A stretch of DNA of 64,000 bases, taken from an uncultured Verrucomicrobiota bacterium (GTDB lineage: Bacteria > Verrucomicrobiota > Kiritimatiellia > JAAZAB01). Under the pieces are notes generated by a model. The model was not told where the DNA came from and searched no databases. It worked only from the letters and a program-made list of their open reading frames with translations. The stretch lies in the NCBI GenBank assembly GCA_964617825.1, contig CAZTWL010000004.1:7546-71545 (forward strand). Direction: 5' to 3'. Below, piece by piece: positions 5,913 to 40,896 of this stretch; within the stretch, counting starts at the first letter, position 1, and the number at the start of each line of letters is the position of its first letter. Made by a program: the position numbers and the translations under genes.

Positions 5913-6329
5913 TAGTGTCTCGCCGTAAATCTTGTGCAAAGACAATCTATCTGCCTTGCCGCCCCAAGGTCAATGCCATAATGATTTCATGTCATGCTTC
6001 GCCGCCTCCCGAGGATGGGCTGACAAAACATTGACCAGCAAGAACAAGCAGCATATCCATGTATATCTGATATGGTAGCAGACGAGGTCAGATCAGGGCG
6101 CGATATAATCCGAAACATACCATTTACGTCAGCCTTATCTTCATCTGTAAACATTCAACCGTGTCTGGCGACTGGACGGTTAAATAAGGTTTGCGTATTT
6201 AGTCGGCGGCATAATTAACGCGGAACGAAGAAAATCAACGCGGGTTACGGATGGAACCCGCAGCCTGCATTGGCCCCGTTTTGAAGTTTGTCCTGTAATT
6301 ATCCGGCCTTATTCATTATCTTGTTACCG

Positions 6330-8012: not shown

Positions 8013-8028
8013 TGGCACGATTGATGCT
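8013..8028 (+). promoter_or_regulatory. Sigma-54 (-24/-12) promoter TGGCACGATTGATGCT
   Basis: GG at 8014-15 and GC at 8026-27 with exactly 10-nt spacing (TGGCAC-N5-TGC). It sits upstream of the Hsp20 gene and downstream of the NtrC-family gene. Confidence 0.6.
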
Positions 8029-8235
8029 TAATCAATGCTGTCGGGAATCATTGCTTTCTTATACGGGAGGGATTAGGAGTGAAGGGAATATTTGAAAAGT
8101 TGCCCTCGCCTTGATCGGCATCCAAGGAAGTTGATGTTATGGAATAAATTTCAAGTCGTATCCTGTTGGCGGCGTTATTTTCCTGAATGTTTTTTTGGGG
8201 CCAGAGCGCTGATCGCAATAATAAGAGTTTATACC

Positions 8236-15569: not shown

Positions 15570-15677
15570 ATAATGGACAAGGGGTAACGGCCAACGGCAC
15601 TTGTTGCTCATTGGCCAAGGCCGGTTTGCATTAGTCCGTTTTTTGCCATCGATTAACCATCAACTACTTTTTTTAAA

Positions 15678-16568: not shown

Positions 16569-16573
16569 AGAAA

Positions 16574-17701: not shown

Positions 17702-17722
17702 AATAAAGAAACGATTCCCGTC

Positions 17723-18757
17723 ATGTTTCGCTTTGCCAATCCATATTATTTGTTTTTGATTATCCCGCTTTGTGTCGTGGCCTGGGCCATGTTCGCGCGG
17801 CGCAGGAAGGGCGGCATTGTCTTTGCACCCACTCATCGTCTGCCGCCTGCGGCTTTAACCTGGCGGACGGTTGCCATCAGCCTTGTCCCGTTCCTGTTCC
17901 TGGCCGGCGCAGGGCTGACGATTATCGCCATGGCCCGTCCGCAAACTGTGTTCTCGAAGACCGCGCATCAAACCGATGCCATTGCCATTCAAATGGTGGT
18001 CGACGTTTCCGGCTCGATGGAAGCGCTGGATTTTTCGACGGCGGACACCATGTGTACGCGCCTGGACGTGGTCAAGGAAACATTCGCCAAGTTCATTGAG
18101 AAGCGCACCGACGACTTGATCGGCCTGGTCACTTTTGGCGGCTATGCCAACAGCCGCGTGCCGTTGACCATCGATCACAGCGCGCTCCTGCACGTCCTCA
18201 AAGGCGTCCAGATTCCCAAACCCTCCCTGGATGCCAACGGGCAGTTGGTTAACCAGGAGGAATTGCTGACCGCCATTGGCGATGCATTGGCCACGGCCTG
18301 CGGGCGGCTGGAAAAGGCCCCGATCAAATCCAAGCTTATCGTGCTGCTTAGCGATGGCGAATCCAACACAGGCCTGATCAAGCCCGACGAAGCCGTCAAA
18401 GCCGCCAAGGCGCTGGGCATCAAGGTCTATACCATCGGTGTGGGCTCAAACGGACGCGCACCCTTTATGACCAGAGACGTTTTCGGCCGCAACACCATTC
18501 AATACGCCGAAGTCCGCATCGATGAGGAACAGCTACGCCGCATTGCCTCGACCACCGGCGGACAATATTTCAACGTCAAGGATCCCAAGGGTCTTTCCCG
18601 TGCGCTATCCGAGATCGATAAACTTGAGAAAACCAATATTAACAAGGAGATTTTTAACCAGTACACGGAATTGTTCCCTCGCTATCTCTGGCCTGGAGTT
18701 GTTTTGCTGGCTCTGGCCATCTCTTTGAACATGATGGTGCGGAAGGAGATTATTTAA
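17723..18757 (+). CDS. BatA-like membrane-anchored von Willebrand factor A protein
   Basis: Two N-terminal TM segments, a vWA MIDAS motif (VVDVSGSM) and a C-terminal TM. Confidence 0.8.
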   Translation: MFRFANPYYLFLIIPLCVVAWAMFARRRKGGIVFAPTHRLPPAALTWRTVAISLVPFLFLAGAGLTIIAMARPQTVFSKTAHQTDAIAIQMVVDVSGSMEALDFSTADTMCTRLDVVKETFAKFIEKRTDDLIGLVTFGGYANSRVPLTIDHSALLHVLKGVQIPKPSLDANGQLVNQEELLTAIGDALATACGRLEKAPIKSKLIVLLSDGESNTGLIKPDEAVKAAKALGIKVYTIGVGSNGRAPFMTRDVFGRNTIQYAEVRIDEEQLRRIASTTGGQYFNVKDPKGLSRALSEIDKLEKTNINKEIFNQYTELFPRYLWPGVVLLALAISLNMMVRKEII

Positions 18758-18761
18758 CGTC

Positions 18762-21698: not shown

Positions 21699-21948
21699 TG
21701 TAAGCACGCCAATGGATGATCAAAAACGGAGCAGTTGTCTGCCATGAGCAGGCGACGGATTATGCGCTGCGCGCGAGGTGTCGGCTGTTGCGAACTTGGT
21801 TATGAATTTTATAATTTGCGGCTCGCATGTTATGATCATTGCTCTTATCCGTTTCTGAGTTGTTTTTGCCGGAATGCATTTTTTTCTTTGGATTTTGGAG
21901 CTTGGATTATTTCTGGCTGCGTGCATAGTTCATTTGAGGCGAGTTACA

Positions 21949-26304: not shown

Positions 26305-26429
26305 TTACCCGACAAAAAACATCACGGAATTCATTGATTTTGATCGCAGAGGGTGATAATAATAATGTTTATTGATCCGGAACTTTGTTCCGGAATCAAA
26401 GCGCATACCCGGGTAGCAGAGGAGGCTTT

Positions 26430-26759
26430 ATGCAAATCGTCACCAGCAAGGTTGATCAAACGACAATTTTGGCCCTCAAAGGCCGTATGGATGTAATCGG
26501 CGCAATGGAATTTGAAAAAGCAATTGCCTTGTGTCTTCAGGAAGGCAACAAGCAGATTGTCGTTGACCTGGACGGGTTGGAGTATATCAGCAGCGCCGGA
26601 TTGCGCAGTTTGCTTTCGACCGCCAAAAAATTCAAGGAAATCAAGGGTACGGCCAACTTCTGCAATGTCAAGGGTGTTGTCAAGGAAGTCTTTACAATGT
26701 CCGGTTTCGATTCAATCCTCCCGATCTTTAAATCGGTCAAAGCCGCTCTGCCGGCGTAG
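26430..26759 (+). CDS. STAS-domain protein (anti-sigma-factor antagonist, SpoIIAA-like)
   Basis: gaggagg RBS. The segment VVDLDGLEYISSAGLRSLL carries the STAS Ser. Confidence 0.75.
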   Translation: MQIVTSKVDQTTILALKGRMDVIGAMEFEKAIALCLQEGNKQIVVDLDGLEYISSAGLRSLLSTAKKFKEIKGTANFCNVKGVVKEVFTMSGFDSILPIFKSVKAALPA

Positions 26760-26763
26760 TGCC

Positions 26764-27096
26764 ATGCAAATTATCTACAAAAAGAAAGATACGGCCGTTG
26801 TCATGAGCATCCATGGGCATTTCAATGCCGGCGATGCCCAGGAGTTCGAACGGATATTCAACCAACACCTGGATGCCGGCGAACGCCGTTTTGTCCTGAA
26901 CCTGGCTGAGTTGTCCTTCATCAACAGCGCGGGTTTGTGCAGTATTCTGTCCATTGCCAAGAAAATCAGGGAGTTGGAAGGCAAACTCGTGGTTTGTGCC
27001 CTGCAAGGCGAAGCGCTCAAAGTGTTCGAGATTTCCGGGTTTGCCTCCTTGTTCTCGATCTATCCGACTGAGGCAGCTGCGCTCAAACAGGTATGA
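26764..27096 (+). CDS. STAS-domain protein (second tandem copy)
   Basis: LNLAELSFINSAGLCSIL STAS motif. It starts 5 nt after the previous stop. Confidence 0.75.
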   Translation: MQIIYKKKDTAVVMSIHGHFNAGDAQEFERIFNQHLDAGERRFVLNLAELSFINSAGLCSILSIAKKIRELEGKLVVCALQGEALKVFEISGFASLFSIYPTEAAALKQV

Positions 27097-27111
27097 TTCT
27101 TCCCGACACCC

Positions 27112-28122
27112 ATGAACCAGGCCATCAACGCCCGTCGGCTCCCGCTTATTGCCGGCTTGCTATGCCTGTCCGGGATGTTGAATACCGCTCTGGCCGGGGA
27201 TAAGCCAACCATCTTGATCCCGCAGTGGGAACCCCAAGCCCAATTCGCCGGCTATTATGTTGCGGCCGAAAAAGGCTTTTATGCCCGTAATGGCCTGAAC
27301 GTTACCATTCTCCGCGGCGGCCCGGAGCAGCCCATTTGCCGCTTGCTTAAGGAAGGCCAGGCAGACTTTGCCACAACCTTCCTGACCTCCGCGCTGGAAA
27401 AGCGTTCACTTGAAGGGCTGCCGCTGGTCAATATCGCTCAAATTGTCCAGCGATCCTCGCTCCTGCTGGTGGCTAGGAAATCGTCCGGGATCCGTTCGCC
27501 GGCCGATTTACAGGGCAAAACGGTCAGCATTTGGCCCGATTTTGCGGTTCAACCCAAAGCCCTGTTCCGTAAATTTGGCGTCGACCCGCGAATGTTGCCC
27601 CAGAGCGCATCGATCAACCTTTTCTTGCGCGGGGCTGTCGATGCCGCATCCGCCATGTGGTATAACGAGTATCATATGCTGCTCAACAGCGGAATTGAGG
27701 AACAAGATTTGACGGTTTTCTTTTACGACCAGTTCGAACTTAATTTTCCCGAAGACGGTATCTATTGCCTGGCAGCGACATTGAAACAGGATCCGGACCG
27801 TTGTCGCCGCTTTGTGCAAGCCTCGATCGCCGGTTGGCAGTACGCGTTCCAGCACCCAGAGGAAGCTCTGGATATCGTCATGCAAAAGGTGACCGCTCTC
27901 AATCGCCCAACCAATCGCGTCCACCAGCGCTGGATGCTGAGACGCATGCAGGATATCATACAGCCGCCCGGCGGCCGGCCCATTGGCGAACTGCAGGAAG
28001 CCGATTACCTGCGTGTGGCCCGTGAACTTCAAGCCGCCGGCCAGATCAAAACCATTCCCGACTGGCACGAATTCTATGAAAACTGCGCCATTAACATTTC
28101 GACGAACCAGCCTGGCCGTTAA
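27112..28122 (+). CDS. NMT1/THI5-like periplasmic substrate-binding protein (SsuA/TauA-type)
   Basis: Signal peptide (LIAGLLCLSGMLNTALA) and an NMT1-type fold pattern. Confidence 0.65.
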   Translation: MNQAINARRLPLIAGLLCLSGMLNTALAGDKPTILIPQWEPQAQFAGYYVAAEKGFYARNGLNVTILRGGPEQPICRLLKEGQADFATTFLTSALEKRSLEGLPLVNIAQIVQRSSLLLVARKSSGIRSPADLQGKTVSIWPDFAVQPKALFRKFGVDPRMLPQSASINLFLRGAVDAASAMWYNEYHMLLNSGIEEQDLTVFFYDQFELNFPEDGIYCLAATLKQDPDRCRRFVQASIAGWQYAFQHPEEALDIVMQKVTALNRPTNRVHQRWMLRRMQDIIQPPGGRPIGELQEADYLRVARELQAAGQIKTIPDWHEFYENCAINISTNQPGR

Positions 28123-30022
28123 GCTGGGATTCATGGTGCTGACCGGCACGTCGCTGGTGTTCGCCGCCGCCTTTCTTTACAATCACGTGCTTTCGCGGCG
28201 CGGCATATTGCGCAACGCGGAAACGAATGCCCGCAATCTGACGAGCGCCACGGTCAGCCGGATTGAGGCCGTCTTGAACGGTGTTGAAAAAATACCCGGC
28301 TATACAGCGCTTTGTCTGGAACAGCGCGCATGGACCCGCGATGATCTGATCGGCTTCACCCGCAACTGCCTGCTGGCCAACCCGGACATTTTCGGAGCAG
28401 CCGTGGCCTTCGATCCGTACGCGTTCGATCCCCAATCCAGGTTTTTTGCGCCTTACAGTTGTCGCCAGGGCAAGGAGATCCGGCAAACCTGGCTGGGAAG
28501 CGAGCAATACCTGTATTTTAACTGGGACTGGTATATCCTGCCCAAGGAACTCAAGCGCTCCGTGTGGAGCGAGCCATATTTCGATGAAAGCGGCGGAAAA
28601 GTCATTATGACCACCTATTCCGTGCCGTTTTACCGCGTGCTGAACGGACAGCGGCAATTTCAGGGAATAGTCACGGCCGATATTGCGCTGGACTGGCTGG
28701 TCAAAATTGTTGCCGAGGTGTCGTATTTAAAAACCGGTTATGCCTTTCTCATTTCGCAGAACGGGGTGTTCGTGACGCATCCCAACACGAATCTGATCAT
28801 GCGCCAAAGCGTCTTCGACATGGCCGAAGACGCCAATGACGATCAAATTCGCCAAGTCGGCAAGAAAATGGTGCAAGGCGCCACAGGCTTTGTGCGTCTG
28901 CAAAGCGTTTTCCTCGGCAAACCCTGCTGGGTTTCCTATGCGCCATTGAAAACGACGGGCTGGTCGTTGGGCGTGCTTTTCCCGGAAGACGAATTGTATG
29001 CCGATGCGCAGCGCATGGGGCGCAATATCCTGCTGATCGGCTTGGCCGGATTCGTTGTCCTCTTCCTGATTATCATGCTGATCTCAGCCTCCGTGACGCG
29101 GCCCATCCGCAGTTTGGCGCGCACCACGGCGGAAATCGCTCAGGGCAATCTGGACATCAAACTGCCCCGGATCAAAAGCCACGATGAAGTCGGTGAACTT
29201 TCCTGCGCTTTCGACAACATGCGCGTGGCCCTCAAGGAATATATTGCCGGCCTTACGGAAGCCACGGCGGCCCGTGAACGCCTGGAAAGCGAACTCAAGA
29301 TCGCCCGGACAATTCAAATGAGTTTCCTGCCCAAGCATTTTCCGCCTTTCCCCGAGCAATCCGAATTCGATCTCTATGCCCGCCTGGAACCAGCCAAGGA
29401 AGTTGGCGGCGACCTATACGACTTTTTCCTGCTCGATAATCAGCACCTGTTCTTCAGTATTGGGGATGTCTCCGACAAAGGCGTGCCGGCGGCGCTTTTC
29501 ATGGCCGTAACCAAAACACTGATGAAAGGAATCGCCATGCAAGGCGGCAAGAATGCCGCCGAAATCATGGAGCAAGTCAATCAGGAATTATGCAAGGAAA
29601 ACGATTCATGCATGTTTGTAACCGTTTTCTGTGCGGTGCTTAATTTCAAAACTGGCGAACTGGTATATTCCAATGCCGGTCATAATCCACCCCTGATCAG
29701 GCATGCAAACGGACAGCCGGAGGAAATGCTCCTGCCCAAGGGACTGATCCTCGGCACAATCGAGGCTGCCCGTTACAAAACCGCCAGACTGATCCTTCGC
29801 CCTGGCGATACATTGATTCTCTATACCGATGGCGTTACCGAAGCGATGAATCCGAATAAGGAATTGTATTCGTCCGAGCGGCTGCGGCAAGTGGTTGTCG
29901 ACATCGGCGACCAGAGCCCGCAAACCATCGTGGATGACCTGTTCAAGTCAGTCAACGCCTACTCCTCCGGCGCTCCGCAATCCGACGACATCACCGTTCT
30001 GGCTTTGCATTACAACGGTTGA
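28076..30022 (+). CDS. Sensor phosphatase: Cache-like periplasmic domain + TM + HAMP + PP2C/SpoIIE (RsbU-like)
   Basis: N-terminus MKTAPLTFRRTSLAVKLGFMVLTG (positively charged, then TM), a periplasmic Cache-like region, a second TM, HAMP, then PP2C motifs (GGDLYDF, SIGDVSDKGVPAALFM, DGVTEA). The ATG at 28076 overlaps the upstream gene by 47 nt. Alternative ATG at 28133. Confidence 0.75.
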   Translation: MKTAPLTFRRTSLAVKLGFMVLTGTSLVFAAAFLYNHVLSRRGILRNAETNARNLTSATVSRIEAVLNGVEKIPGYTALCLEQRAWTRDDLIGFTRNCLLANPDIFGAAVAFDPYAFDPQSRFFAPYSCRQGKEIRQTWLGSEQYLYFNWDWYILPKELKRSVWSEPYFDESGGKVIMTTYSVPFYRVLNGQRQFQGIVTADIALDWLVKIVAEVSYLKTGYAFLISQNGVFVTHPNTNLIMRQSVFDMAEDANDDQIRQVGKKMVQGATGFVRLQSVFLGKPCWVSYAPLKTTGWSLGVLFPEDELYADAQRMGRNILLIGLAGFVVLFLIIMLISASVTRPIRSLARTTAEIAQGNLDIKLPRIKSHDEVGELSCAFDNMRVALKEYIAGLTEATAARERLESELKIARTIQMSFLPKHFPPFPEQSEFDLYARLEPAKEVGGDLYDFFLLDNQHLFFSIGDVSDKGVPAALFMAVTKTLMKGIAMQGGKNAAEIMEQVNQELCKENDSCMFVTVFCAVLNFKTGELVYSNAGHNPPLIRHANGQPEEMLLPKGLILGTIEAARYKTARLILRPGDTLILYTDGVTEAMNPNKELYSSERLRQVVVDIGDQSPQTIVDDLFKSVNAYSSGAPQSDDITVLALHYNG

Positions 30023-30355: not shown

Positions 30356-30373
30356 TTGTGAAATTAATCACGA
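30356..30373. promoter_or_regulatory. Rex operator-like site TTGTGAAATTAATCACGA
   Basis: Matches TTGTGAA-N4-TTCACAA at 16 of 18 positions, upstream of rex. Confidence 0.45.
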
Positions 30374-30418: not shown

Positions 30419-30436
30419 TCGTGAATTCATTCACAA
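30419..30436. promoter_or_regulatory. Rex operator TCGTGAATTCATTCACAA
   Basis: One mismatch to the 18-bp TTGTGAA-N4-TTCACAA consensus, ~30 bp upstream of the rex start. Confidence 0.6.
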
Positions 30437-30464: not shown

Positions 30465-31121
30465 ATGAACGATAAGGTCAAAAATCACGCTGTTCCGGCA
30501 AAGACAATCGAGCGCCTTGTGATGTATCGAATTCTCCTGGATGAGCTGCAGGCCCAGGAAAAAACACATATATTCTCGAATGAAATGGCTCAGATTGTCG
30601 GTAACACTTCGACCCAGGTCCGAAGGGATTTGATGGCCGTCGGCTACACAGGCAATTCGCGGAATGGTTATCAAATCAAGGATTTATTGAAAGCCATCCG
30701 GTCGCTGCTTGAGCCACCGGAAGGAATTACCATGGCTATCGCCGGCATCGGCAACCTTGGACGCGCCATGCTGGGCTATTTTTCCCTGATGCATCCGCGC
30801 TTCCGGATTGTGGGTGCGTTCGATAACGATGTCAACAAGGTGAATCGCACAATCGGCGGCTATCGGATTTCCCACATCCACTCGTTGACCGAAATTTTGA
30901 CGCGCACTCCGGCTCAACTGGGAGTGATAACGGTGCCCGCCGATCAGGCTCAAAAAGTCGCGGACGCCTTCCTGGCATCGAAGGTAACCGGGATCGTTAA
31001 TTTTGCGGCTATTCCGCTTCGCGTTCCGCACCGTGTTTGGTTGGAAGATATGCACATCACATCAACGCTGGAAAAAGCCGCTTATTTTTCCAGAATGAAA
31101 CAGCAAGGAGTAAGCCTGTGA
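30465..31121 (+). CDS. rex: Redox-sensing transcriptional repressor Rex
   Basis: gggaggg RBS. The N-terminal winged helix carries RLVMYRIL. The Rossmann domain carries AIAGIGNLGRA and FDNDVNKV. Confidence 0.85.
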   Translation: MNDKVKNHAVPAKTIERLVMYRILLDELQAQEKTHIFSNEMAQIVGNTSTQVRRDLMAVGYTGNSRNGYQIKDLLKAIRSLLEPPEGITMAIAGIGNLGRAMLGYFSLMHPRFRIVGAFDNDVNKVNRTIGGYRISHIHSLTEILTRTPAQLGVITVPADQAQKVADAFLASKVTGIVNFAAIPLRVPHRVWLEDMHITSTLEKAAYFSRMKQQGVSL

Positions 31122-31132
31122 GCACAGCCACG

Positions 31133-31591
31133 ATGGAGAAAATTAAGTCGAAACACCCGGATGCGGGACGCGATTCCCTGATTCCCATACTGCAGGAACT
31201 GCAGGACGAGCAGGGTTACCTGGCCGAGGAATCGCTGCAGGAAGTCAGCCGTATGTTGAAACTGCCGATGAGCAAGGTTTACGGCGTGGCGAGCTTTTAC
31301 AACCAGTTCCGCTTTCACCCCATCGGCAAATATCACTTCGTGGTTTGCCGGGGTACCGCCTGCCATGTGAAAAAATCGCTGGCGCTTCTGCAAGTGGTTA
31401 AGCAGGCCTTGAAGATCGAACCGGGCCAAACCACCCGCGACGGACTTTTCACGCTCGACCAGGTGGCCTGCATTGGCGCCTGCGGACTGGCGCCAGTCGT
31501 TTGCGTGAATGGCGAATTTCACGCCAAAATGACACCGGAAAAAATTACGGCATTGATTGCAACCTTACGGAGCGCGAATGAAAACAAATAA
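31133..31591 (+). CDS. NuoE-like [2Fe-2S] thioredoxin-fold subunit of NADH-linked [FeFe] hydrogenase (HydC/HndA-type)
   Basis: VCRGTACHV...CIGACGLAPV four-Cys pattern. An in-frame GTG at 31118 (RBS caaggag) overlapping the rex stop is an alternative start. Confidence 0.85.
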   Translation: MEKIKSKHPDAGRDSLIPILQELQDEQGYLAEESLQEVSRMLKLPMSKVYGVASFYNQFRFHPIGKYHFVVCRGTACHVKKSLALLQVVKQALKIEPGQTTRDGLFTLDQVACIGACGLAPVVCVNGEFHAKMTPEKITALIATLRSANENK

Positions 31592-33578
31592 TAGTCTGAC
31601 CGAGCCATGCTGCGCCCGATGCACGCATGCTCCCGAAAAACCCTGCACGAAACGCGTGGAGTGTCTGCTGGATGGTCCTTTCTGCCACGATGACCCGGCC
31701 TGCCGCCAGAAACGCCAGGCCAACGCGAAACAGGCCCGCCGGCAAACGGTTGCCGAACCGGTCTTTATCGTCGGCACCGGCACTTGCGGGCTGGGCGCGG
31801 GCGCAGCCAAAACGATGGAAGCCATTCGCAATTACTGCCGCGCCCACAATTTGGCCCATTCGCTGGTCGAAACCGGCTGTATCGGCCTCTGTTCCGCCGA
31901 GCCGATCATGGATGTCATGCTGCCGGGCAAAGCGCGAATCAGTTTTTCGGATGTTACCGAAGATCGCGTCGCCCCGCTGCTGGATGCCTTGCTGGCCGGC
32001 AAAGCGGATGCCGCCCTGGCGCTGGGTTATTATCCCCAGGAAGGCCACGCCGCCTGGGATGGGATTGCGCCCATAAACGAGCACCCCTTCTTTGCCTCGC
32101 AACACAGGATCGTCCTCCAAAACTGCGGGGTGATCAATCCCTCCAGCCTGGATGAATACGTCGCTTTGCGCGGCTACCGGGCGCTGGCCAAGGCCTTGAA
32201 CACAATGACGCCGGATGAGGTGATTCAGGCGGTGTCGATTAGCGGTCTGCGCGGGCGCGGCGGCGGTGGATTTCCCACAGGCAAAAAATGGTCCCTGGCG
32301 CGCTCGACGCCGTCAGCCCAGAAATATGTGGTTTGTAATGCCGACGAAGGCGACCCGGGGGCCTTCATGGATCGGGCGGTAATCGAAGGCGACCCCCATC
32401 GCGTTCTGGAAGGACTTGCGATTGCGGCCTATGCGGTGGGCGCCTCGAAAGCCTATGTGTATATCCGGGCGGAATACCCCCTGGCGATTCGCCATCTCGA
32501 AGCGGCGATTGCCCAGGCCACGGCCTTGGGACTCATTGGCTATAACATCCTGGATAGCGGATTCAACCTGGCCATCATTATCAAGCAAGGCGCCGGCGCC
32601 TTTGTCTGCGGCGAGGAGACCGCCTTGATCCACAGCATTGAAGGCAAGCGCGGCATGCCGCGCCTGCGGCCGCCCTACCCGGCCACGAGCGGACTGTTCG
32701 GCAAGCCGACGATCATCAACAACGTGGAAACGCTGGCCAATATTCCATCAATTCTGCTGGATTCGCCGGAAAAGTTCGCTGCGATGGGCACGGCTACCAG
32801 CAAAGGCACGAAGGTCTTTGCCCTTTCCGGCAAGGTATCGCGCACCGGTCTGGTCGAGATCGTCATGGGCACGCCGATCAAAGATATCGTCATGAAAATC
32901 GGAGGCGGGATTGCGGATGGCCTGAAGTTCAAGGCCGTGCAGATCGGTGGTCCGTCGGGCGGATGCATCCCCTCCAGCCACATCGATATTGCCGTCGATT
33001 ACGAATCATTGAAACAGGTTGGCGCCATCATGGGCTCCGGCGGGCTGGTTGTAATGGACGAGAAAAACTGCATGGTGGATCTGGCCAAGTTCTTCATGGA
33101 ATTCATCCAGCGCGAAAGCTGCGGCAAGTGCATTCCCTGCCGGGAAGGCACGCGGCGCATGCTGGAAATCCTCAAGAGCATTACGCGTCCACGCGGGGCT
33201 GATTCCGCAACCAATGCCCTCGATCGCTTCAAGGGCGTCCTGCAACTAGAGGAACTGGCCATGGTCATCCGGGACACCAGTCTGTGCGGCCTGGGGCAGA
33301 CGGCGCCCAATCCCGTGCTCTCGACCTTGCGCTGGTTCAGCAACGAATACGAGGCGCACGTCTACGAACGGCGATGTCCGGCGGGCGCCTGCACGGCATT
33401 GCTGAAATATACGATCGATCCGGCCAAATGCATCGGCTGCACGCGTTGCGCAAAATCCTGCCCGGCGGGGGCCATTGCCGGGTCGGCAAAGAAACCGCAT
33501 GCCATTGCCAATGCCCGTTGCATCGGCTGCGGAAGTTGTCTCGATATTTGCACGTTTGGCGCCATCACTCGTAATTGA
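31578..33578 (+). CDS. NuoF-like NADH-binding flavoprotein subunit (HydB/HndC-type)
   Basis: GLRGRGGGGFPTGKKW FMN site and ESCGKCIPCREG N3 cluster motif. An N-terminal thioredoxin-like [2Fe-2S] domain and two C-terminal ferredoxin-type Cys clusters flank the core. A Cys-rich 55-aa N-terminal extension precedes the 2Fe-2S domain. Confidence 0.9.
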   Translation: MKTNNSLTEPCCARCTHAPEKPCTKRVECLLDGPFCHDDPACRQKRQANAKQARRQTVAEPVFIVGTGTCGLGAGAAKTMEAIRNYCRAHNLAHSLVETGCIGLCSAEPIMDVMLPGKARISFSDVTEDRVAPLLDALLAGKADAALALGYYPQEGHAAWDGIAPINEHPFFASQHRIVLQNCGVINPSSLDEYVALRGYRALAKALNTMTPDEVIQAVSISGLRGRGGGGFPTGKKWSLARSTPSAQKYVVCNADEGDPGAFMDRAVIEGDPHRVLEGLAIAAYAVGASKAYVYIRAEYPLAIRHLEAAIAQATALGLIGYNILDSGFNLAIIIKQGAGAFVCGEETALIHSIEGKRGMPRLRPPYPATSGLFGKPTIINNVETLANIPSILLDSPEKFAAMGTATSKGTKVFALSGKVSRTGLVEIVMGTPIKDIVMKIGGGIADGLKFKAVQIGGPSGGCIPSSHIDIAVDYESLKQVGAIMGSGGLVVMDEKNCMVDLAKFFMEFIQRESCGKCIPCREGTRRMLEILKSITRPRGADSATNALDRFKGVLQLEELAMVIRDTSLCGLGQTAPNPVLSTLRWFSNEYEAHVYERRCPAGACTALLKYTIDPAKCIGCTRCAKSCPAGAIAGSAKKPHAIANARCIGCGSCLDICTFGAITRN

Positions 33579-33594
33579 GCAAGGAGGAATCGTT

Positions 33595-35317
33595 TGTGAT
33601 CACAATTGAAGTCAACGGAAAACCCATGGAAGTAAAGGAAGGCGAAACACTCCTGGCAGCCATGCGGTCTCAGGGAATTCTAATCCCGGCCCTCTGTCAC
33701 ATGGAAGGTTTCTCACCCACCGGCGCCTGCCGCCTGTGCGTGGTGGAAGTGGAAGGCCAGCGGGGCCTGTCGCCCAGCTGCGCCACCGTGGTCAGCAAGG
33801 GAATGAAAGTTAAGACCCATTCGCCCCGCGTGCTGAAAGCCCGTAAAACCGTGGTGGAGTTGTTGCTGGCCGGGCACCCCGATAACTGCCTGTATTGTTC
33901 GCGCAACAAGCACTGCGAACTTCAGTCGCTGGCCGAACAATTGGGCATTAGTGACCGCCGTTTTGAGGGAGGCCGCAACCGCTTCCCGCTCGACATGTCG
34001 AGCCCGTCCCTGGTGCGCGATCCGGATAAATGCATCCTGTGCGGTCGCTGTGTCCGCGTTTGTGAGGAAGTCCAGGGGGTCGGCGCCATCGATTTCATCG
34101 GGCGCGGTTGCACCACCGAGGTGGGCACGGCCTTCCGGCGCGGATTGAACACCTCCACTTGCGTCAACTGCGGGCAGTGTATTGTGGCCTGTCCGACAGG
34201 GGCTCTGCGCGAACAGAGTTCCATCGCCGTGGTGGAGAATGCCCTGGCGGATCCCGCCAAATGCGTCGTGATCCAGCATGCTCCGGCCGTGTCGGTAACG
34301 CTTGGCGAAGAAATCGGATTGAAGGCCGGAACGGATTATGCCGGGATCCTCAATGCGGCCTTGCGGCGCCTGGGTTTTGCCAAGGTTTTTGATACTTCCT
34401 TCACCGCCGACCTGACGATCATGGAGGAGGCGTCCGAACTGGTGCAGCGGATCACGCAGGGCGGGCGCTTGCCGCTCATGACCAGCTGTTCGCCGGCTTG
34501 GGTTAAATTCGTGGAGCATTTTTATCCGCAGCTGATCCCTAACCTTTCGACCTGCAAGAGTCCGCAGCAGATGATGGGTGCGGTGATCAAGAGTTATTAT
34601 GCCGCCAAGGCCGGGATCGATCCGCACAATATTTTCAGCGTGAGCCTGATGCCCTGCACGGCCAAAAAATTCGAGGCTACGCGGCCGGAAATGGGCCGGG
34701 ATGGCATGTCCGATATCGACGCCGTTCTGACGACGCGCGAGCTCGTTTCCCTGCTGCACAAGCACGGTATTGACCCTCAGACCATGACTCCGGAAGAGGC
34801 GGACGATCCCATGGCGCGCCGCAGCGGCGCCGGCAAAATCTTTGGCGCCTCGGGCGGCGTCACCGAGGCGGCCTTGCGCACGGCCTATCACCTGATTACC
34901 GGGCATGAAAGCCCGTCGCTGACCTTCAAGGAAGTTCGCGACAGCCGTGGGACAAAGGAAGCCCGCATCCAGATCGCCAATCTGAATGTCGGCGTGGCCG
35001 TTGTCTCCGGACTGCAGAATGCACGACGCCTGATGGACCAGCTTGTTGCCGGCCGTACGGACCTGCATTTCATCGAAGTGATGAGTTGCCCGGGCGGCTG
35101 CGTCGCCGGTGGCGGACAGCCGCGCGGTGTGGACCACAGCGCCGTTCGCGAGCGCGCGGCCGCGCTCTATTCGGTCGACGAACATGAAAAACTGCGCACG
35201 TCGCACGAAAATACATCCATCCAGGAACTTTATAAAGAATTCCTGGGAAGTCCCTTGGGACACAAGTCCCACGAACTGCTGCACACGCATTACATGAAAA
35301 GGGATTCGGCGCAATAA
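33595..35317 (+). CDS. hydA: [FeFe] hydrogenase catalytic subunit HydA (NuoG-like N-terminus)
   Basis: GTG start after aaggagga. N-terminal 2Fe-2S and 4Fe-4S cluster motifs precede the H-cluster motifs MPCTAKKFE (L2) and EVMSCPGGCVAGGGQP (L3). The L1 motif reads TSCSPAW rather than canonical TSCCPxW. Confidence 0.9.
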
Positions 35318-37347
35318 TGAATGCCGGCTGCACCCAGCCTAATACCGCCGTGCCGATCGTGGAAGAGCCGCTGGTCCGTTCGGTGAGCGAACGATGCCGC
35401 GTCTGTTACACTTGCGTTCGGGAATGTCCGGCCAAGGCCATCAGGATTATCCATGGCCAGGCCGCGGTGATTCCGGAACGCTGCATCGGCTGCGGCAATT
35501 GCGTCCGCGTGTGCAGCCAGGGCGCCAAAGAAGTGCGCAACAGCGTGCCCAAGGTGCGTGAAATCCTGCAGGGCCAGGCGCCGGTGGCGGCGATCCTGGC
35601 CCCCAGCTTTCCCGCTGCGTTTTCGGAATGCGATTACGGCGCAGTGGTCGGCATGCTGCGCCGGCTGGGATTTGCCAGGGTTTGCGAGACGGCCTTTGGG
35701 GCCGACATGGTGGCTCAGGAATATCGGAGGCTGCTCGAAGCGCATCCGGATCGGAACTACATTGCCTCGACCTGCCCGGCCGTCGTATCTTTCATCGAAT
35801 ATTACCACCCTACCCTCGTGACACGGTTGATTCCGGTGGTGTCGCCCATGGTGGCCGCGGCGCGAATGTTGAAAAAAATCCAGCCTGAAATCCGCATAGT
35901 ATTTATCGGTCCGTGCATTGCCAAAAAAGCCGAAGCGATCGACGAGGATGCTGCCAGCGCGGTCGATGCCGTGCTGACTTTCACGGAAATAAGGACCATG
36001 CTGCAGGAACAAAGCATCAATCCGCAGGGCACGACGCCCTCCGAATTCGATCCGCCCTATGCCGGCAAAGGGCGGCTTTTTGCCTTGACGCGCGGACTGT
36101 TGGAAACTGCCGGAATCCGCGAGGAACTGATGAACAACAATATTGTCGTCAGCGACGGACGGGAAAGTTTTGTCGAGGCGATCAACGAATACGAACTCGG
36201 TTCGCTGAATGCCCGCTTGCTGGAAGTCTTGTGCTGCCAGGGTTGTATCATGGGAGCCGGCATGTCCAAGCCACTGCTGCCCTTGTTCAAGCGCCGCGCG
36301 CTGGTCAGCGCCTATGCGAAGAAACGCACGGCCGACCCGACCACCCCGGTCGCAACAACGGGACGCGAGCCGCATAATGTCGATCTGCACCGCGAGTTTC
36401 GCCGCAAGGACCGTAATATGCCGACGCCAATGGATGACGATATCAATGCGATCCTGGCCAAGATGGGCAAGTTCTGCGCGGATGATGAATTGAATTGCGG
36501 TGCTTGCGGCTACGCAACCTGCCGGCTGCATGCCGTGGCCATCCACGATGGCTTGGCCGAGGAGGAGATGTGCCTGCCTTATACGATCGACAAACTGAAA
36601 GAAACGATCCAGAAGCTGGCCGATTCGAGCGAGGAAGTGGCTACGATCCAGAACGCGCTGGCCCAGTCGGAAAAGCTGGCCAGCATGGGCCAGCTGGCTG
36701 CCGGCGTGGCGCATGAAGTCAACAACCCGTTGGGCATTGTGCTGATGTATGCGCACCTCCTTCTCGAAAAACACGGCCGGGCCGACAAAGGGCTTAAGGA
36801 AGACTTGAGCGTAATTGTGGCGCAGGCTGACCGCTGCAAACGAATCATCTCCGGCCTGCTGGATTTTGCCCGCCAAAACAAGGTGTTGCGCCAGCGCACG
36901 AACATCCTGCACCTGGTGGAAAACAATTTGCGGGCCATCAATCTGCCGCCGGAAATCGAAACACGGATCGTCAATGGCCTGGAGGATCCCGTGGCCGAGG
37001 TGGATGCCGACCAGATTTCCCAGGTATTGGTCAATCTCTTTGCCAATGCGCGGGCCGCCATGCCGCGCTCCGGGCGTTTGACGGTGGAGTTGAGCGGTGA
37101 CACTGATACCGTAACTCTGCGCGTGGCGGATAACGGCGTGGGCATCCCGCCTGAGAACCTGCCGAGGATTTTCGATCCTTTTTTCACGACGAAACAAATC
37201 GGCATCGGGACTGGGCTGGGACTGGCCGTGGTATACGGCATCATCAAAATGCACCGCGGAAAAATCACGGTCAAATCCAATCACACCCCCGGCAAGGACG
37301 ATACCGGCACGGTCTTCACCATTAACTTGCCGCGCAGGGGAATTTAA
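35317..37347 (+). CDS. Sensory [FeFe]-hydrogenase-like domain fused to a histidine kinase (HisKA + HATPase_c)
   Basis: Two N-terminal ferredoxin CxxCxxCxxxCP motifs, then an H-cluster-like domain with ASTCPAV (L1 lacking one Cys), GPCIAKKAE (L2) and EVLCCQGCIMGAG (L3). A CADDELNCGACGYATC...(16)...C cysteine cluster follows, then the HAHEVNNPL H-box and an ATPase domain. The ATG overlaps the hydA stop (TAATG). Confidence 0.8.
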   Translation: MNAGCTQPNTAVPIVEEPLVRSVSERCRVCYTCVRECPAKAIRIIHGQAAVIPERCIGCGNCVRVCSQGAKEVRNSVPKVREILQGQAPVAAILAPSFPAAFSECDYGAVVGMLRRLGFARVCETAFGADMVAQEYRRLLEAHPDRNYIASTCPAVVSFIEYYHPTLVTRLIPVVSPMVAAARMLKKIQPEIRIVFIGPCIAKKAEAIDEDAASAVDAVLTFTEIRTMLQEQSINPQGTTPSEFDPPYAGKGRLFALTRGLLETAGIREELMNNNIVVSDGRESFVEAINEYELGSLNARLLEVLCCQGCIMGAGMSKPLLPLFKRRALVSAYAKKRTADPTTPVATTGREPHNVDLHREFRRKDRNMPTPMDDDINAILAKMGKFCADDELNCGACGYATCRLHAVAIHDGLAEEEMCLPYTIDKLKETIQKLADSSEEVATIQNALAQSEKLASMGQLAAGVAHEVNNPLGIVLMYAHLLLEKHGRADKGLKEDLSVIVAQADRCKRIISGLLDFARQNKVLRQRTNILHLVENNLRAINLPPEIETRIVNGLEDPVAEVDADQISQVLVNLFANARAAMPRSGRLTVELSGDTDTVTLRVADNGVGIPPENLPRIFDPFFTTKQIGIGTGLGLAVVYGIIKMHRGKITVKSNHTPGKDDTGTVFTINLPRRGI

Positions 37348-37374
37348 ACAAAACGCACTCGAAAGGATACAAAG

Positions 37375-37764
37375 ATGGGCACAGCAAAAAAAGCGCTGAT
37401 CGTGGACGATGATACCGATTTTGTTTTCCAGCAGAAAAAGGCACTGGAGTCGCTGGGTTTCACCGTTGAATCGGCGGAAGGCCGCGAAGAAGCGATGGAA
37501 AAACTTAAAGTCTACCACCCGGACCTGGCGATGGTAGATCTGATGATGGAAGAAAAGGATGGCGGATTTGTGCTCGCGCATTATCTCAAGCAGCTGTATC
37601 CGCAAACACCGGTCATCCTCGTATCGGCGGTCACAGCTGAAACCGGCCTGCAATTCGACTTGGATTCGCAGGGAGCGCAGCGCTGGATCAAGGCGGATGC
37701 GATCATGACCAAGCCCTTGCGCTTGGAACAATTGCAACGGGAAATCGAACGCTTAATGGCATGA
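37375..37764 (+). CDS. Single-domain response regulator (REC)
   Basis: ALIVDDD ... MVDLMM ... receiver pattern. 129 aa. Confidence 0.8.
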   Translation: MGTAKKALIVDDDTDFVFQQKKALESLGFTVESAEGREEAMEKLKVYHPDLAMVDLMMEEKDGGFVLAHYLKQLYPQTPVILVSAVTAETGLQFDLDSQGAQRWIKADAIMTKPLRLEQLQREIERLMA

Positions 37765-38885
37765 AGACAACGGACCTGACTTTTTGGATCGTCGATGATG
37801 AGCCCTCCATGTGCCAGAGCGTTCTACGCGCACTGGAGGATTTCAGCGTGGATGACCAGGATCTGGGTGAGACCGTGCGTTATCAGGGCCTGGCGCTGGA
37901 TTCCGGCGAAGCCTTCATGCAGCGGGTGGAGAGCGGGGAAGTCCCGCACCTGCTGCTGCTGGACAGCAAGCTGCCGGGCAAAGATGGCATTGAAGTCCTG
38001 CAATGGATGGGCAAGCGCCATCAACCGATTGTGACGATAATGATCACCGCCTACGCCACACTGGAAAATGCGGTCAAGGCCACCAAACTGGGCGCATTTG
38101 ATTTCCTGGCAAAACCATTTACCCCGGTGGAATTGCGCCACGCCGTCACCCGGGCCACCCGCGAAATCCTTCACCTTCGCCGTGCCCGGCAACTGGAGCA
38201 GGAAAAGCGCCAGGTGCGTTTTGAATTTCTTTCCATCTTGGCCCATGAATTGAAGTCCCCCCTCGCGGCACTTGAAGGCTATGTGGATTTGGAGCGCCAG
38301 GCACCCTCCAAGGAATACCTTGACCGCATGCAGGCGCGGATTTCCGGCATGCGCAAGCTGATCGGAGACTTACTGGACTTGACGGCAATCGAATCCGGCA
38401 AGCGGATACGCAATCTGCAACCGGAAGACTTGCGCGCCGTGGCGCTCCAGGAAATTGCCGCCCAGACGTCCGCCGCAGCGGAACGCCGGATTTCGATGGA
38501 TGTGACCGGAACCGGCCAGTCCTCGGTGGAAGCCGATCGCCGCGAATTGGAAATGTTGCTGAGGAACTTGATTTCCAATGCGATCAAATACAACCGTCCG
38601 GGCGGCAGCGTGACCGTCGACATTACCGCAACCGAAGGTGAGATTGTTCTGAGCGTGCGCGATACCGGCATCGGCATTGCTCCGGCTGATCAGGAAAAAT
38701 TATTCCTTGAATTTTCGCGCGTCAGAAACCAGAAAACAAGGGGAATTGAAGGCAGCGGATTGGGACTTTCCATTGTACGTCAGATTGCCGGACTATATGG
38801 AGCCAAGATCCGTTTGATAAGCGAAGAAGACAAGGGCAGCACTTTTATGGTAATATTTCACAGACCAAATAGCCCCGCTGCTTGA
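37761..38885 (+). CDS. Hybrid response regulator-histidine kinase (REC + HisKA + HATPase_c)
   Basis: ATGA overlap with the upstream gene. REC (FWIVDDEP...LLLDSKLPGKDG), the LSILAHELKSPL H-box, and G-boxes. Confidence 0.85.
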   Translation: MKTTDLTFWIVDDEPSMCQSVLRALEDFSVDDQDLGETVRYQGLALDSGEAFMQRVESGEVPHLLLLDSKLPGKDGIEVLQWMGKRHQPIVTIMITAYATLENAVKATKLGAFDFLAKPFTPVELRHAVTRATREILHLRRARQLEQEKRQVRFEFLSILAHELKSPLAALEGYVDLERQAPSKEYLDRMQARISGMRKLIGDLLDLTAIESGKRIRNLQPEDLRAVALQEIAAQTSAAAERRISMDVTGTGQSSVEADRRELEMLLRNLISNAIKYNRPGGSVTVDITATEGEIVLSVRDTGIGIAPADQEKLFLEFSRVRNQKTRGIEGSGLGLSIVRQIAGLYGAKIRLISEEDKGSTFMVIFHRPNSPAA

Positions 38886-38932: not shown

Positions 38933-39313
38933 ATGGACACAAAAACAATCCTAGTCGTGGATGATGACGCTGACATTCGGGCTCAGATGGAAAAGATCCT
39001 CCAACCCCATTATCGGGTGATAACGGCGGCGTCCGGTAAAGAATGCCTGCAGAATGTAGCCAAGGCGCTGCCGGACTGCATCGTCATGGACGTCATGATG
39101 GATGACTTGACTGACGGCCTGGAAACCGCCAAGAAACTCAAGGATGCCTACAAGACCAGGAAAATTCCGATCATCCTGTTGACCAGCGTTAACGAATCGT
39201 ATGACTATCGCTCACAGGTGGATGCCGGCTATTTCCCGCACAATTGCTGGATGGATAAGCCGGTCAAGGCGGACCGCCTTCTCAAGGAAATCGCGGCCCT
39301 GGTCGGGGCCTGA
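38933..39313 (+). CDS. Single-domain response regulator (REC)
   Basis: aaaggaggg RBS. ILVVDDDADIR ... IVMDVMMDD receiver pattern. Confidence 0.8.
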   Translation: MDTKTILVVDDDADIRAQMEKILQPHYRVITAASGKECLQNVAKALPDCIVMDVMMDDLTDGLETAKKLKDAYKTRKIPIILLTSVNESYDYRSQVDAGYFPHNCWMDKPVKADRLLKEIAALVGA

Positions 39314-39540
39314 AACCAAGTCACGCGAACGCATGTCCGCCAAGCTGCAGTCATAAGGCCGCCAAAAGCGGCGCATAAAGTTATTCGGGGTTGCGCCTGC
39401 TATAAAAATTAAATCTCGCTTTTTCCATTTTTGCAGCCACGACGCGCTTGGGAGCGGCAATGGATTTTCCTTGTTTATCGCGCCGCATTCATTTATTGAT
39501 AGCGCCAAATAAGTGTCCGTGAATAGATGCGGAGCGGTTG

Positions 39541-40896
39541 ATGGAACGCTATAAAATTCTCATTGTCGATGACGAAGCTGACATGGTGTCCGCCATGACC
39601 AAGCTGCTGGCCTCCTCGGTGCAAGCCGACATCATTTCCACCTGCTCATCCAGCGAAGCCATCAATATTCTATTCAAGGAATCCATTGCCTTGATATTGT
39701 GCGACATGCAAATGCCCGAGTTCGACGGCAACGTCGTGCTCTCCCTCGCCCGCAAAAGCAATCCCAATATTGTCTCCATTCTTTGCACGGCCCGCGCCGA
39801 CCGCGAAAGCGTTATTGAAGCCATCAATAAGGGTGGCATCTGGAAGTATCTGGCCAAGCCTTTCAAGGCCGCCGACTTCATCCAGATGATCCAGGACGGA
39901 CTCCAATATTACGACGACGTCATGCGCCGCCAGAATCAGCTAAAGACACTGGCGCATACTGCTCCCATGCCGAAGCTGGCTCCGAAACAAGCGGAGACGC
40001 CAAAGGCGCGTCCGCTCCATCCGGTACGCATTAAAAGGATGCACCCGGTTGTCGCGCATCGTCCTGCCATTCCCAAACTCGCCGGTCCTCTGGCCAACGC
40101 CAAGCACGTTGACCAGCGCTATCGGATTGTGCGCCTGATTCAGGAAGGTGGCAGCGGTATCGTCTATGAAGCCCATGACACCCTGCTGGACATGCCCGTG
40201 GCAATCAAAGTGCTCTTGCCCCAATTCACTCAGGATGCGGCCTCGATCGCCGCGTTGCGCAACGAGGCGCGGATTGCCATGCAGCTTTCGCACAAGCATA
40301 TCGTGCGCTTGCACAACCTTCAGGAACATGACGGCGGATTTTATATGGTCATGGAATACATCGACGGCTGCACGTTTCGTGACATTATCAAGGACCAGGG
40401 CAAACTGCCTCTGGCCACGGCCATGCAGGTGGCCGGCATATGCGCCGATGCCATCGGTTATGCCCATCGCCGCAATGTGCTCCATCGCGATATCAAGCCT
40501 GACAACATGATGCTGACCCAGGATGGCGTGTTGAAGGTCATTGATTTCGGCTTGGCCTGCCTTTCGCATCCGGTGCGCAAAACCGAGGTGATCAGCGGGA
40601 CGCCGATGTATATCAGCCCGGAAGAATTTCAAGGCAAGTCCCTGGATCAGCGCTCGGATATTTTCTCTCTGGCCGTCACCCTTCACGAATTGATTACCGG
40701 CAATATGCCGACAGCCGATGGCGCGCGCGCCAATAATCTGGCGCCCTACTGCCCGGTAATCTCAGCCGAGATCCCCACCCCGCTCCGCCCTGTCTTCGCG
40801 AAGGCCCTGGCCCTGGACCCCGACAAGCGCTGGAGCACCGTCGACGAGTTTGTCGGGGAACTGACCAAGGCCTATGCCGGCATCAAATCCGCATGA
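39541..40896 (+). CDS. Response-regulator receiver fused to Hanks-type Ser/Thr protein kinase
   Basis: N-terminal REC (ILIVDDEADM...LCDMQMPEFDG). The kinase domain carries GGSGIVYEA, AIK, HRDIKPDNMML, DFGLA and SPEEF. Confidence 0.85.
   Translation: MERYKILIVDDEADMVSAMTKLLASSVQADIISTCSSSEAINILFKESIALILCDMQMPEFDGNVVLSLARKSNPNIVSILCTARADRESVIEAINKGGIWKYLAKPFKAADFIQMIQDGLQYYDDVMRRQNQLKTLAHTAPMPKLAPKQAETPKARPLHPVRIKRMHPVVAHRPAIPKLAGPLANAKHVDQRYRIVRLIQEGGSGIVYEAHDTLLDMPVAIKVLLPQFTQDAASIAALRNEARIAMQLSHKHIVRLHNLQEHDGGFYMVMEYIDGCTFRDIIKDQGKLPLATAMQVAGICADAIGYAHRRNVLHRDIKPDNMMLTQDGVLKVIDFGLACLSHPVRKTEVISGTPMYISPEEFQGKSLDQRSDIFSLAVTLHELITGNMPTADGARANNLAPYCPVISAEIPTPLRPVFAKALALDPDKRWSTVDEFVGELTKAYAGIKSA

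Follow-up and report, generated by a model that had tools for sequence, protein, structure and literature searches.

The 64,000-nucleotide stretch analysed here (the window) belongs to contig CAZTWL010000004.1 of an uncultured Verrucomicrobiota bacterium of the Kiritimatiellia. On its forward strand, at 35317..37347, lies a single unbroken open reading frame (ORF) of 676 codons, whose 676-residue product joins a HydS-type sensor part, related to [FeFe] hydrogenases, to a histidine kinase; Pfam, homologues, alignment, AlphaFold and Foldseek all enter into this assignment. We refer to it as the fusion. It stands directly behind hydA, the gene for a catalytic hydrogenase of the trimeric type, and the two genes overlap in the sequence TAATG, as the original prediction had stated: the hydA stop codon TAA (35315-35317) shares one base with the fusion's ATG (35317-35319), in the context ...CAA TAATG AAT.... 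Translation might instead begin at a GTG, at residue 12 or 15, since homologues align only from about residue 16. An open frame of 815 codons on the minus strand (35290-37737) spans the whole gene in antisense; it has neither start context nor domain evidence and is most likely a by-product of the codon and GC bias of the sensor-kinase gene on its coding strand.

At the N-terminus of the fusion, two [4Fe-4S] motifs, C27/30/33/37 and C56/59/62/66, lie in a ferredoxin-like domain (Pfam Fer4_10, Fer4 and Fer4_9, residues 22-70; 35380..35526). It precedes the H-cluster domain (Fe_hyd_lg_C, residues 89-314, E 2.7e-51; 35581..36258), which carries the motifs L1 (STCP), L2 (GPCIAKKAE) and L3 (EVLCCQGC). 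An accessory C-terminal cluster motif follows (PF04060 'FeS', residues 392-421; 36490..36579), then a signalling helix that runs into the DHp/HisKA domain (36574..36876; HisKA at residues 457-520, E 2e-14), and finally the catalytic ATP-binding domain (HATPase_c, residues 563-673, E 2.6e-25; 37003..37335). Given these E-values, the domain assignments are far beyond chance, and the HisKA and HATPase_c scores exceed the Pfam gathering thresholds. Pfam finds no PAS match in the protein at E ≤ 0.01, and beyond the sensor part it finds only HisKA and HATPase_c, with no output domain.

The motifs of the H-cluster domain were equated by residue-level alignment to solved group A enzymes, namely TmHydA (7p5h), the T. 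kivui enzyme (8a6t) and DdH, and conservation was read from an alignment of 89 relatives (A2). The CpI residue numbers attached to the fusion's motif positions are those taken to correspond. L1 reads A-S-T152-C153-P-A-V, with T152 on the position of the proton-relay Cys (CpI C299) and C153 on that of a cluster ligand (CpI C300), so that STCPAV was rightly seen as the L1 of a sensory-type domain from which the relay Cys is missing; in the relatives the relay position is T, S or N. L2, G198-P-C200-I-A-K203-K-A-E206, keeps its Cys, Lys and Glu (CpI C355, K358 and E361), and L3, E-V-L305-C-C307-Q-G-C310, keeps both of its Cys ligands (CpI C499 and C503). The four H-cluster ligands (CpI C300, C355, C499 and C503) are thus all matched, by C153, C200, C307 and C310. 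L2 and L3 had been called intact, which holds for the Cys ligands and not for the Met residues: CpI M353 is replaced by Gly198, a glycine that is nearly invariant in the relatives, and CpI M497 by Leu305. In addition, L3 has one residue fewer between its two Cys than the group A and catalytic enzymes.

Across the 89 sequences, C200, C307 and C310 are invariant, and C153 and the pocket residues P96, S97 and P177 are at least 90 % conserved, while the cysteines of the N-terminal clusters are invariant or nearly so. K203 is conserved in the 120 closest listed homologues and is K or R in the wider family. The acidic side of the proton path is altered as well. A 5-residue gap in the fusion lies opposite the EEAHE acidic stretch of an aligned group A enzyme, a stretch taken to include CpI E279/E282, and the position presumed equivalent to CpI S319 is Ile, judged by eye against the neighbouring HydA rather than by a tool alignment. 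Both the Cys of the proton relay and the acidic residues of the proton path are therefore lost, as in the criterion for sensory-type enzymes in PMC8163306, where, as in PMC8924675, this loss is discussed for TmHydS and TamHydS; since both are gone, a metabolic role for the fusion is argued against.

The original prediction had also described a five-cysteine cluster, Cx6Cx2Cx4Cx16C, ahead of the kinase. The string is present as C387x6C394x2C397x4C402x16C419, and C394, C397, C402 and C419 are invariant in the 89 relatives. C387, on the other hand, is not conserved, the consensus of the relatives having Pro at this position, and the 'Cx6C' motif is therefore cut back to the canonical four-cysteine motif Cx2Cx4Cx16C, which is already known from TmHydS and TamHydS (PMC8163306).

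The kinase boxes of the fusion, comprising H466 in AHEVNNPL, N577, D605xGxG609, F622 and G633xG635, are invariant or nearly so in the same 89 sequences, the predicted phospho-acceptor H466 itself being nearly invariant. An AlphaFold model built with the 89-sequence alignment has a mean predicted local distance difference test score (pLDDT) of 90.3 and a predicted TM-score (pTM) of 0.71; a single-sequence model, with a pLDDT of 36, was discarded. In the retained model, residues ~20-340 fold like an [FeFe] hydrogenase (Foldseek to DdH, E 4e-22; target TM-scores 0.63-0.70), and the C-terminal third resembles the cytoplasmic domain of ZraS (PDB 9jfj, E 1.7e-33, TM 0.76), in keeping with matches of the kinase core to the NCBIfam AtoS and ZraS models. 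A single predicted helix of 67 residues (420-486) starts directly after C419, becomes helix 1 of the DHp domain and carries His466, and a second helix (491-519) closes the DHp hairpin. The 46 residues from C419 to H466 are all in one helix, and the model contains neither a PAS fold nor room for one. Pfam and the predicted helix thus agree with the claim that HisKA and HATPase_c follow the cluster directly, with no PAS domain between. Judging from this monomer model, on which the idea of coupling through the helix rests, it is plausible that a mechanical link between sensor and kinase is formed by C419, which, as the final ligand of the C-terminal cluster, stands where the signalling helix begins.

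A protein identical to the fusion is already on record (P0001), encoded on an NCBI contig of 156 kb. The 120 best listed clusters at 90 % identity are 56-82 % identical to it, all have the same Pfam domains and, a few shorter entries aside, align over at least 95 % of its length; this copy is at most 82 % identical to the other matches listed, and its nearest named relatives are from Phycisphaerae and other Planctomycetota. The genome survey that the original prediction had proposed for the hydrogenase-HisKA architecture was made with one genome per GTDB species and returned at least 587 relatives. Full-length fusions span genomes labelled with at least eight major lineages, and include Planctomycetota, Thermoguttaceae, several Bacteroidales/Bacteroidota, Ignavibacteria/Melioribacteraceae, Elusimicrobiota, Desulfobacteraceae, Syntrophorhabdaceae, Anaeromyxobacteraceae, Bdellovibrionales and Ca. 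Kuenenia stuttgartiensis. The architecture is therefore widespread.

Neighbouring genes were classified at 30 independent fusion loci, smaller denominators being the loci that could be scored. The typical order is rex-hydC-hydB-hydA-[sensor-kinase]-receiver (REC)-[REC-kinase], often followed by hydE/G/F. The gene hydA stands immediately upstream of the fusion in 21/26 loci, a stand-alone REC downstream in 23/28, and a REC-kinase hybrid downstream in every locus scored (28/28). At least one of hydE, hydG and hydF is found in 16/30 loci, often with an aspartate-ammonia-lyase-like gene, and rex in 14/30. In the three homologous loci read at nucleotide level (L001, L003 and L004), 19-51 nucleotides separate hydA from the fusion; compared with these, the TAATG overlap is specific to this genome. 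At three other loci (L002, L012 and L021) the cassette is accompanied by maturase genes and not by adjacent hydCBA. A further arrangement was seen at L001, L019, L022, L023 and L024 (several Ignavibacteria, Bacteroidota and metagenomic loci), in which the sensor-kinase/REC/REC-kinase genes are followed by another REC and a second full hydC-hydB-hydA set, the sensor thus lying between two trimeric hydrogenase operons.

The partners of the kinase core are not confined to hydrogenase-type inputs. The same core, with its REC-kinase partner, is also found behind membrane-type N-terminal regions that have neither the hydrogenase module nor the cluster motif. Some of these proteins (L074, L079-L084 and L047) had come up as tblastn matches limited to residues ~397-672, and were rejected as FeS-plus-kinase units: they are membrane-type kinases with long non-hydrogenase N-termini and no CGACGY motif, and have only the kinase core and the REC-hybrid partner in common with the fusion. 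Since the kinase core pairs with non-hydrogenase inputs, these sequence comparisons suggest that the HydS module is an exchangeable input to a generic kinase/REC-kinase cassette.

In the window, the genes from rex to a REC-Ser/Thr kinase behind the fusion are all on the forward strand and tightly packed. The first encodes Rex, the redox-sensing (NADH/NAD+) transcriptional repressor (30466..31121; NCBIfam NF003995, 187.6 bits against a cut-off of 126; Pfam Put_DNA-bind_N and CoA_binding). Its ORF is listed from a GTG at 30402, with the ATG at 30466 as the likely start. A gap of a few nucleotides leads to hydC, a NuoE-like [2Fe-2S] subunit (31118..31591; Pfam 2Fe-2S_thioredx, E 2.7e-50), whose somewhat uncertain start was placed at a GTG after AAGGAG. 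Next come hydB, a NuoF-like FMN/NADH subunit with two C-terminal [4Fe-4S] clusters (31557..33578; Pfam Complex1_51K, NADH_4Fe-4S and Fer4; NCBIfam nuoF_fam and a NuoF CCxxC prefix domain), and hydA, the catalytic subunit (33575..35317; group A3, NCBIfam 'A6'; NF040763, 825 bits against 765; Pfam Fer2_4, NADH-G_4Fe-4S_3, Fe_hyd_lg_C and Fe_hyd_SSU). Downstream of the fusion are a stand-alone receiver, REC1, which is a candidate phospho-acceptor (37375..37764; Response_reg, E 6e-16); a REC-HisKA-HATPase_c hybrid, that is, a second kinase with an N-terminal receiver (37761..38885; Pfam); a third receiver, REC3, consisting of this domain only (38933..39313; Response_reg, E 2e-19) and present also in some syntenic loci (L004 and L005); and a receiver fused to a Ser/Thr protein kinase (39538..40896; Response_reg and Pkinase, E 6e-45, with HRDIKP, DFG and SPE motifs). 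The intergenic distances, in nucleotides, are -35 (hydC-hydB), -4 (hydB-hydA), -1 (hydA-fusion), +27 (fusion-REC1), -4 (REC1-hybrid), +47 (hybrid-REC3) and +224 (REC3-REC-Ser/Thr kinase). The last of these genes, which ends the run of receiver genes 3' of the fusion, is unique to this genome, being absent from the position after the fusion in the other 30 loci examined; that it belongs to the cascade is uncertain.

A search with the Rex-operator consensus TTGTGAAnnnnTTCACAA gave, as its two best matches in the 64 kb, two palindromes just upstream of rex: TTGTGAAATTAATCACGA at 30356-30373, with two mismatches, and TCGTGAATTCATTCACAA at 30419-30436, with one. Both lie within about 110 nucleotides of the rex ATG. 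We infer that Rex binds these candidate operator sites, and their position suggests that the rex-hyd-sensor operon may be autoregulated by NADH/NAD+. Scans for a promoter and a terminator of the operon, and a search of the window for sigma54 promoters, gave matches at chance level. One gene-near sigma54-like match was set aside as unlinked to the hyd operon, since it lies about 29 kb off, upstream of an Hsp20 gene beside an NtrC-type regulator: the site (8013-8028, with one mismatch) is within chance expectation for the window, the Hsp20-domain gene follows at 8092-9072, and no kinase gene adjoins the NtrC-type sigma54 response regulator (6288-7679).

Several other features of the window deserve mention. 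The L1 of the neighbouring HydA is TSCSPAW (34481-34501) in place of the canonical TSCCPxW, with L2 and L3 canonical. In the alignment, Ser replaces the second Cys, which we presume to be the [4Fe-4S]H ligand CpI C300. The TSCSP form is present in 117 of the 120 closest listed HydA homologues; the three syntenic HydA proteins whose motifs were read (L001, L003 and L004) all have it too, and the NCBIfam family to which hydA belongs is named 'NADH-dependent [FeFe] hydrogenase, group A6'. The variant has been remarked upon for Melainabacteria (PMC3787301), and no explanation of cluster ligation in TSCSP enzymes was found in the literature searched.

Directly upstream of rex (26385-30022) there is a module of the partner-switching type, made up of two proteins with a STAS domain (26385-26759 and within 26512-27096), followed at 27112-28122 by an NMT1-like binding protein and at 27983-30022 by a phosphatase of the dCache-HAMP-SpoIIE (PP2C) type. 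Loci of HydDB group C3 have phosphatase-linked signalling as their hallmark, and by this analogy a functional link between the STAS/SpoIIE module and the hydrogenase operon is conceivable. Farther upstream, the region 14526-24561 has a layout like that of Bat/aerotolerance-type clusters: genes for a MoxR-like AAA ATPase (14526-15569) and, at 15678-16568, a DUF58/VWA protein, these first two identified by Pfam, are followed by four more large ORFs, one of which (18762-21698) encodes a 978-residue protein with a long low-complexity tail rich in Q, K and E.

The sensor part alone (residues 1-430) was searched against 1.84 billion representatives, giving 5379 clusters at E ≤ 1e-3, or 964 if the cut-off is set at E ≤ 1e-30. 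For the best 150 clusters at 50 % identity, the output following the sensor module was classified, 20 members by Pfam scan and the rest by local phmmer. PAS only, the classic HydS arrangement, is the most frequent (55 clusters), followed by a direct HisKA kinase as in the fusion (38). Direct sigma54 activators with an HTH account for 11 clusters, PAS-kinases, some with receivers, for 8, and PAS-sigma54 activators and direct GGDEF for 4 each; MCP follows with 2, and a kinase-receiver hybrid, a HisKA_3 kinase and a GAF-GAF-kinase occur once each, which leaves 25 clusters with an unclassified C-terminal extension or a fragment. Given its fusion to PAS, PAS-kinase, sigma54, GGDEF and MCP outputs, it follows that the module is used as a signalling input. 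In seven proteins (P0146, P0161, P0149, P0136, P0148, P0139 and P0195), the sensor module, including Cx2Cx4Cx16C, was seen joined to sigma54-HTH, GGDEF, MCP, HisKA_3 or GAF-GAF-kinase; the sigma54-activator and HTH fusions (P0146) are true one-polypeptide regulators, and no discussion of the sigma54 and GGDEF fusions was found in the literature searched. A neighbour-joining tree of the module was rooted on four group A HydA. In this tree, which has no bootstrap values, contains neither group B or E nor Nar1 references and is drawn from a sample biased to the query, the fusion falls within a clade of direct histidine-kinase fusions, with clusters of PAS-type HydS next to it. Proteins with PAS only come together in a single derived cluster, whereas the other outputs interleave. 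We use the tree solely for the point that the H-domain appears to fall among hydrogenases of the signalling type, apart from group A.

The PAS-less sensory hydrogenase-kinase architecture is not new, having been in print at least three times. In HydDB (PMC5037454, 2016), one class is '[FeFe] C1, histidine kinase-linked (putative)'. Meheust et al. (bioRxiv 10.1101/765248, 2020) described in Elusimicrobia a PAS-less group C hydrogenase fused to a kinase, beside a trimeric hydrogenase and Rex, those of lineage V being related to proteins of Ignavibacterium album and Caldithrix abyssi. A study of Hydrogenedentota (2024) named a group C protein with a histidine kinase domain, encoded downstream of bfuA, 'BfuT' (sub-type V), and listed C1 proteins with HATPase_c (PMC11406978). 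The original prediction had contrasted the fusion with PAS-containing sensory hydrogenases that work with separate partners, and its impression of novelty probably arose because the biochemical papers define group C by the PAS domain (PMC8163306, PMC11216029, PMC13104023). The fusions in these surveys, like ours, combine a PAS-less sensory H-domain with a kinase beside a trimeric group A hydrogenase and Rex, and one Elusimicrobiota copy (L021) and three Ignavibacteria copies (L019, L022 and L027) were found here as full-length relatives. What sets the present copy apart is a new sequence, the 1-nucleotide overlap with hydA and, closing the cluster, the REC-Ser/Thr kinase peculiar to this genome. 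Its likeness to HydDB C1 is one of architecture, and its class may be C1 or C3.

Among characterized proteins, TmHydS of Thermotoga maritima (group C, M2f) shares with the fusion the two N-terminal [4Fe-4S] clusters, the absence of the relay Cys, the M353-to-Gly replacement, the C-terminal Cx2Cx4Cx16C cluster and a gene position near a group A hydrogenase (PMC8163306). At its C-terminus, however, TmHydS has a PAS domain and no kinase, whereas in the fusion the kinase directly follows the cluster domain, so that the M2f hallmark of a PAS after the C-terminal cluster is lacking; M497 is Ser in TmHydS and Leu in the fusion, in which the relay position is Thr. TamHydS of Thermoanaerobacter mathranii (group D, M2e) resembles the fusion in having no PAS, a C-terminal [4Fe-4S] cluster, M497 replaced by Leu and a place beside a trimeric bifurcating hydrogenase (PMC8163306). 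It stops after the cluster domain, with its partners encoded by separate genes, whereas the fusion carries a kinase of 255 residues, and in place of the M2e hallmark, Ser/Thr at M353, the fusion has Gly198. A functional parallel outside the [FeFe] enzymes is HoxBC with HoxJ of Cupriavidus necator (HydDB [NiFe] group 2b), in which a slow sensor hydrogenase likewise acts through a histidine kinase on hydrogenase expression (PMC5037454, PMC5665086). The metal site and fold are unrelated, and the partners are separate polypeptides joined via a PAS-like domain; this is analogy, not homology. Among ZraS/AtoS/NtrB-like HisKA kinases, the transmitter core of the fusion is most similar to that of ZraS (9jfj), but these kinases sense at the membrane, through periplasmic or PAS domains, and are paired with sigma54 activators, and no such regulator is present in the fusion's cassette.

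We consider it likely, on balance, that the fusion is a soluble sensor histidine kinase whose input is a putative sensory HydS-type [FeFe] hydrogenase, acting in an H2-responsive phosphorelay that tunes HydABC; it probably serves to match hydrogenase use to the hydrogen level. The original prediction had called it a one-component H2 sensor. This does not hold, as there is no output domain, and REC1 lies 27 nucleotides downstream with the REC-kinase hybrid behind it, an arrangement conserved in the syntenic loci; the gene content marks the fusion as the predicted first kinase of a multi-step phosphorelay. In the mechanism we propose, the H-cluster would be matured by HydE/F/G and would react slowly with H2. 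A redox or conformational change in the unit formed by the H-domain and the C-terminal cluster would then pass along helix 420-486 and switch autophosphorylation of His466, and the phosphoryl group would move to REC1 and/or the receiver of the REC-kinase hybrid, and from there to the onward output. Transcription of this operon is probably controlled by Rex in an NADH-dependent manner, so that, with H2 as the second input, the cell could integrate H2 level and redox state in tuning HydABC and the maturases.

Several observations weigh against this proposal. The L3 of the fusion is shorter than that of the catalytic enzymes, as noted above, and in some group C1 proteins with a kinase a 2024 survey could barely detect P1-P3 motifs and questioned whether these proteins sense H2 (PMC11406978). 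In TamHydS, 1 atm H2 does not reduce the C-terminal cluster, a result that the authors of that study take as refuting signalling via reduction of this cluster (PMC13104023); it follows that the signal may be conformational and not a redox change of the cluster. The genes hydE, hydG and hydF were not found anywhere in the 64-kb window; if both hydrogenase-type proteins undergo maturation, these genes have to be located in another part of the genome. The sensor-kinase/REC/REC-kinase cassette encodes no DNA-binding response regulator, and no paper was found that reports autophosphorylation or other biochemistry on any hydrogenase-kinase fusion.

What else might the fusion be? It could sense redox state or electron flux, its N-terminal [4Fe-4S] clusters exchanging electrons with ferredoxin or HydABC and its H-domain being a structural relic or a redox buffer; the kinase would then be governed by the redox state of the clusters instead of by H2 binding. 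The unresponsive C-terminal cluster of TamHydS would fit such a role, as would the one-base overlap with hydA in a Rex-associated operon and the service that the kinase core and REC-hybrid give to unrelated Cache/HAMP sensors, the input being evidently exchangeable. Against it count the four H-cluster ligands, conserved together with P96, S97 and P177 in 89 divergent sequences, and K or R at position 203; maturase genes follow the cassette in 16/30 loci, and TmHydS and TamHydS bind an active H-cluster and have sensor-like properties (PMC8163306, PMC10055695). We regard this explanation as rather unlikely. Less probable still, in our estimation, is that the fusion would be a fourth, attached subunit of HydABC that regulates the enzyme directly, through local phosphorylation or electron gating, and not gene expression. 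Its position directly downstream of hydA in most loci, the overlap seen here, the name 'T subunit' in PMC11406978 and the lack of a DNA-binding regulator in the cassette are all compatible with this; but the loci at which the cassette has maturase genes and no adjacent hydCBA (L002, L012 and L021) are not readily accommodated, and a canonical transmitter with adjacent receivers points to a phosphorelay.

The remaining alternatives concern the nature of the protein itself. Nar1/NARF-like proteins act in eukaryotic cytosolic Fe-S assembly, have no di-iron site and are independent of HydE/F/G. An H-domain of this kind, or a degenerate fold with [4Fe-4S] clusters only and no di-iron subcluster, might be suspected from the non-canonical residues of L1, L2 and L3, the shortened L3 and NCBIfam scores that do not reach the cut-offs for hydrogenases (190.7 bits for TIGR04105, where 450 are required). 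Against it stand the invariant bridging C310, the conserved Pro and Ser of the pocket, the K or R at position 203, the bacterial origin of the protein and the linkage to hydE/G/F; its nearest relatives, moreover, are PAS-type HydS and signalling fusions, and the HydS-type proteins with which it appears to cluster include characterized members that contain an H-cluster (PMC8163306). We therefore hold this explanation to be very improbable. That two genes were joined by a sequencing or assembly frameshift is practically negligible as an explanation: the frame is unbroken, the identical protein is on record, the 120 listed homologues from independent assemblies share its domains, and 30 independent loci carry the fusion. 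One polypeptide is thus what the gene encodes, as had been predicted.

Returning to the H2-responsive phosphorelay, it is tempting to go one step further, although we do so tentatively and with some doubt. The HydS-type module may be a portable, mechanically signalling H2-input domain, and the sensor-kinase/REC/REC-kinase trio an uncharacterized H2-responsive phosphorelay, perhaps ending in the REC-Ser/Thr kinase in this genome. A last cluster ligand that caps the signalling helix would explain why the module can be fused directly to kinase, sigma54, GGDEF or MCP outputs, with PAS being optional.

The fusion bears on whether group C and D [FeFe] hydrogenases sense H2 and on how the signal is passed on. 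A natural fusion avoids the problem of finding the partner, for autophosphorylation of His466 would be a direct read-out of the state of the sensor, the adjacent receivers are obvious targets for phosphotransfer, and the family is large and diverse enough for a well-behaved member to be picked. The value of this locus is thus that of a convenient experimental handle and of one more case of a widespread H2/redox control cassette in anaerobes.

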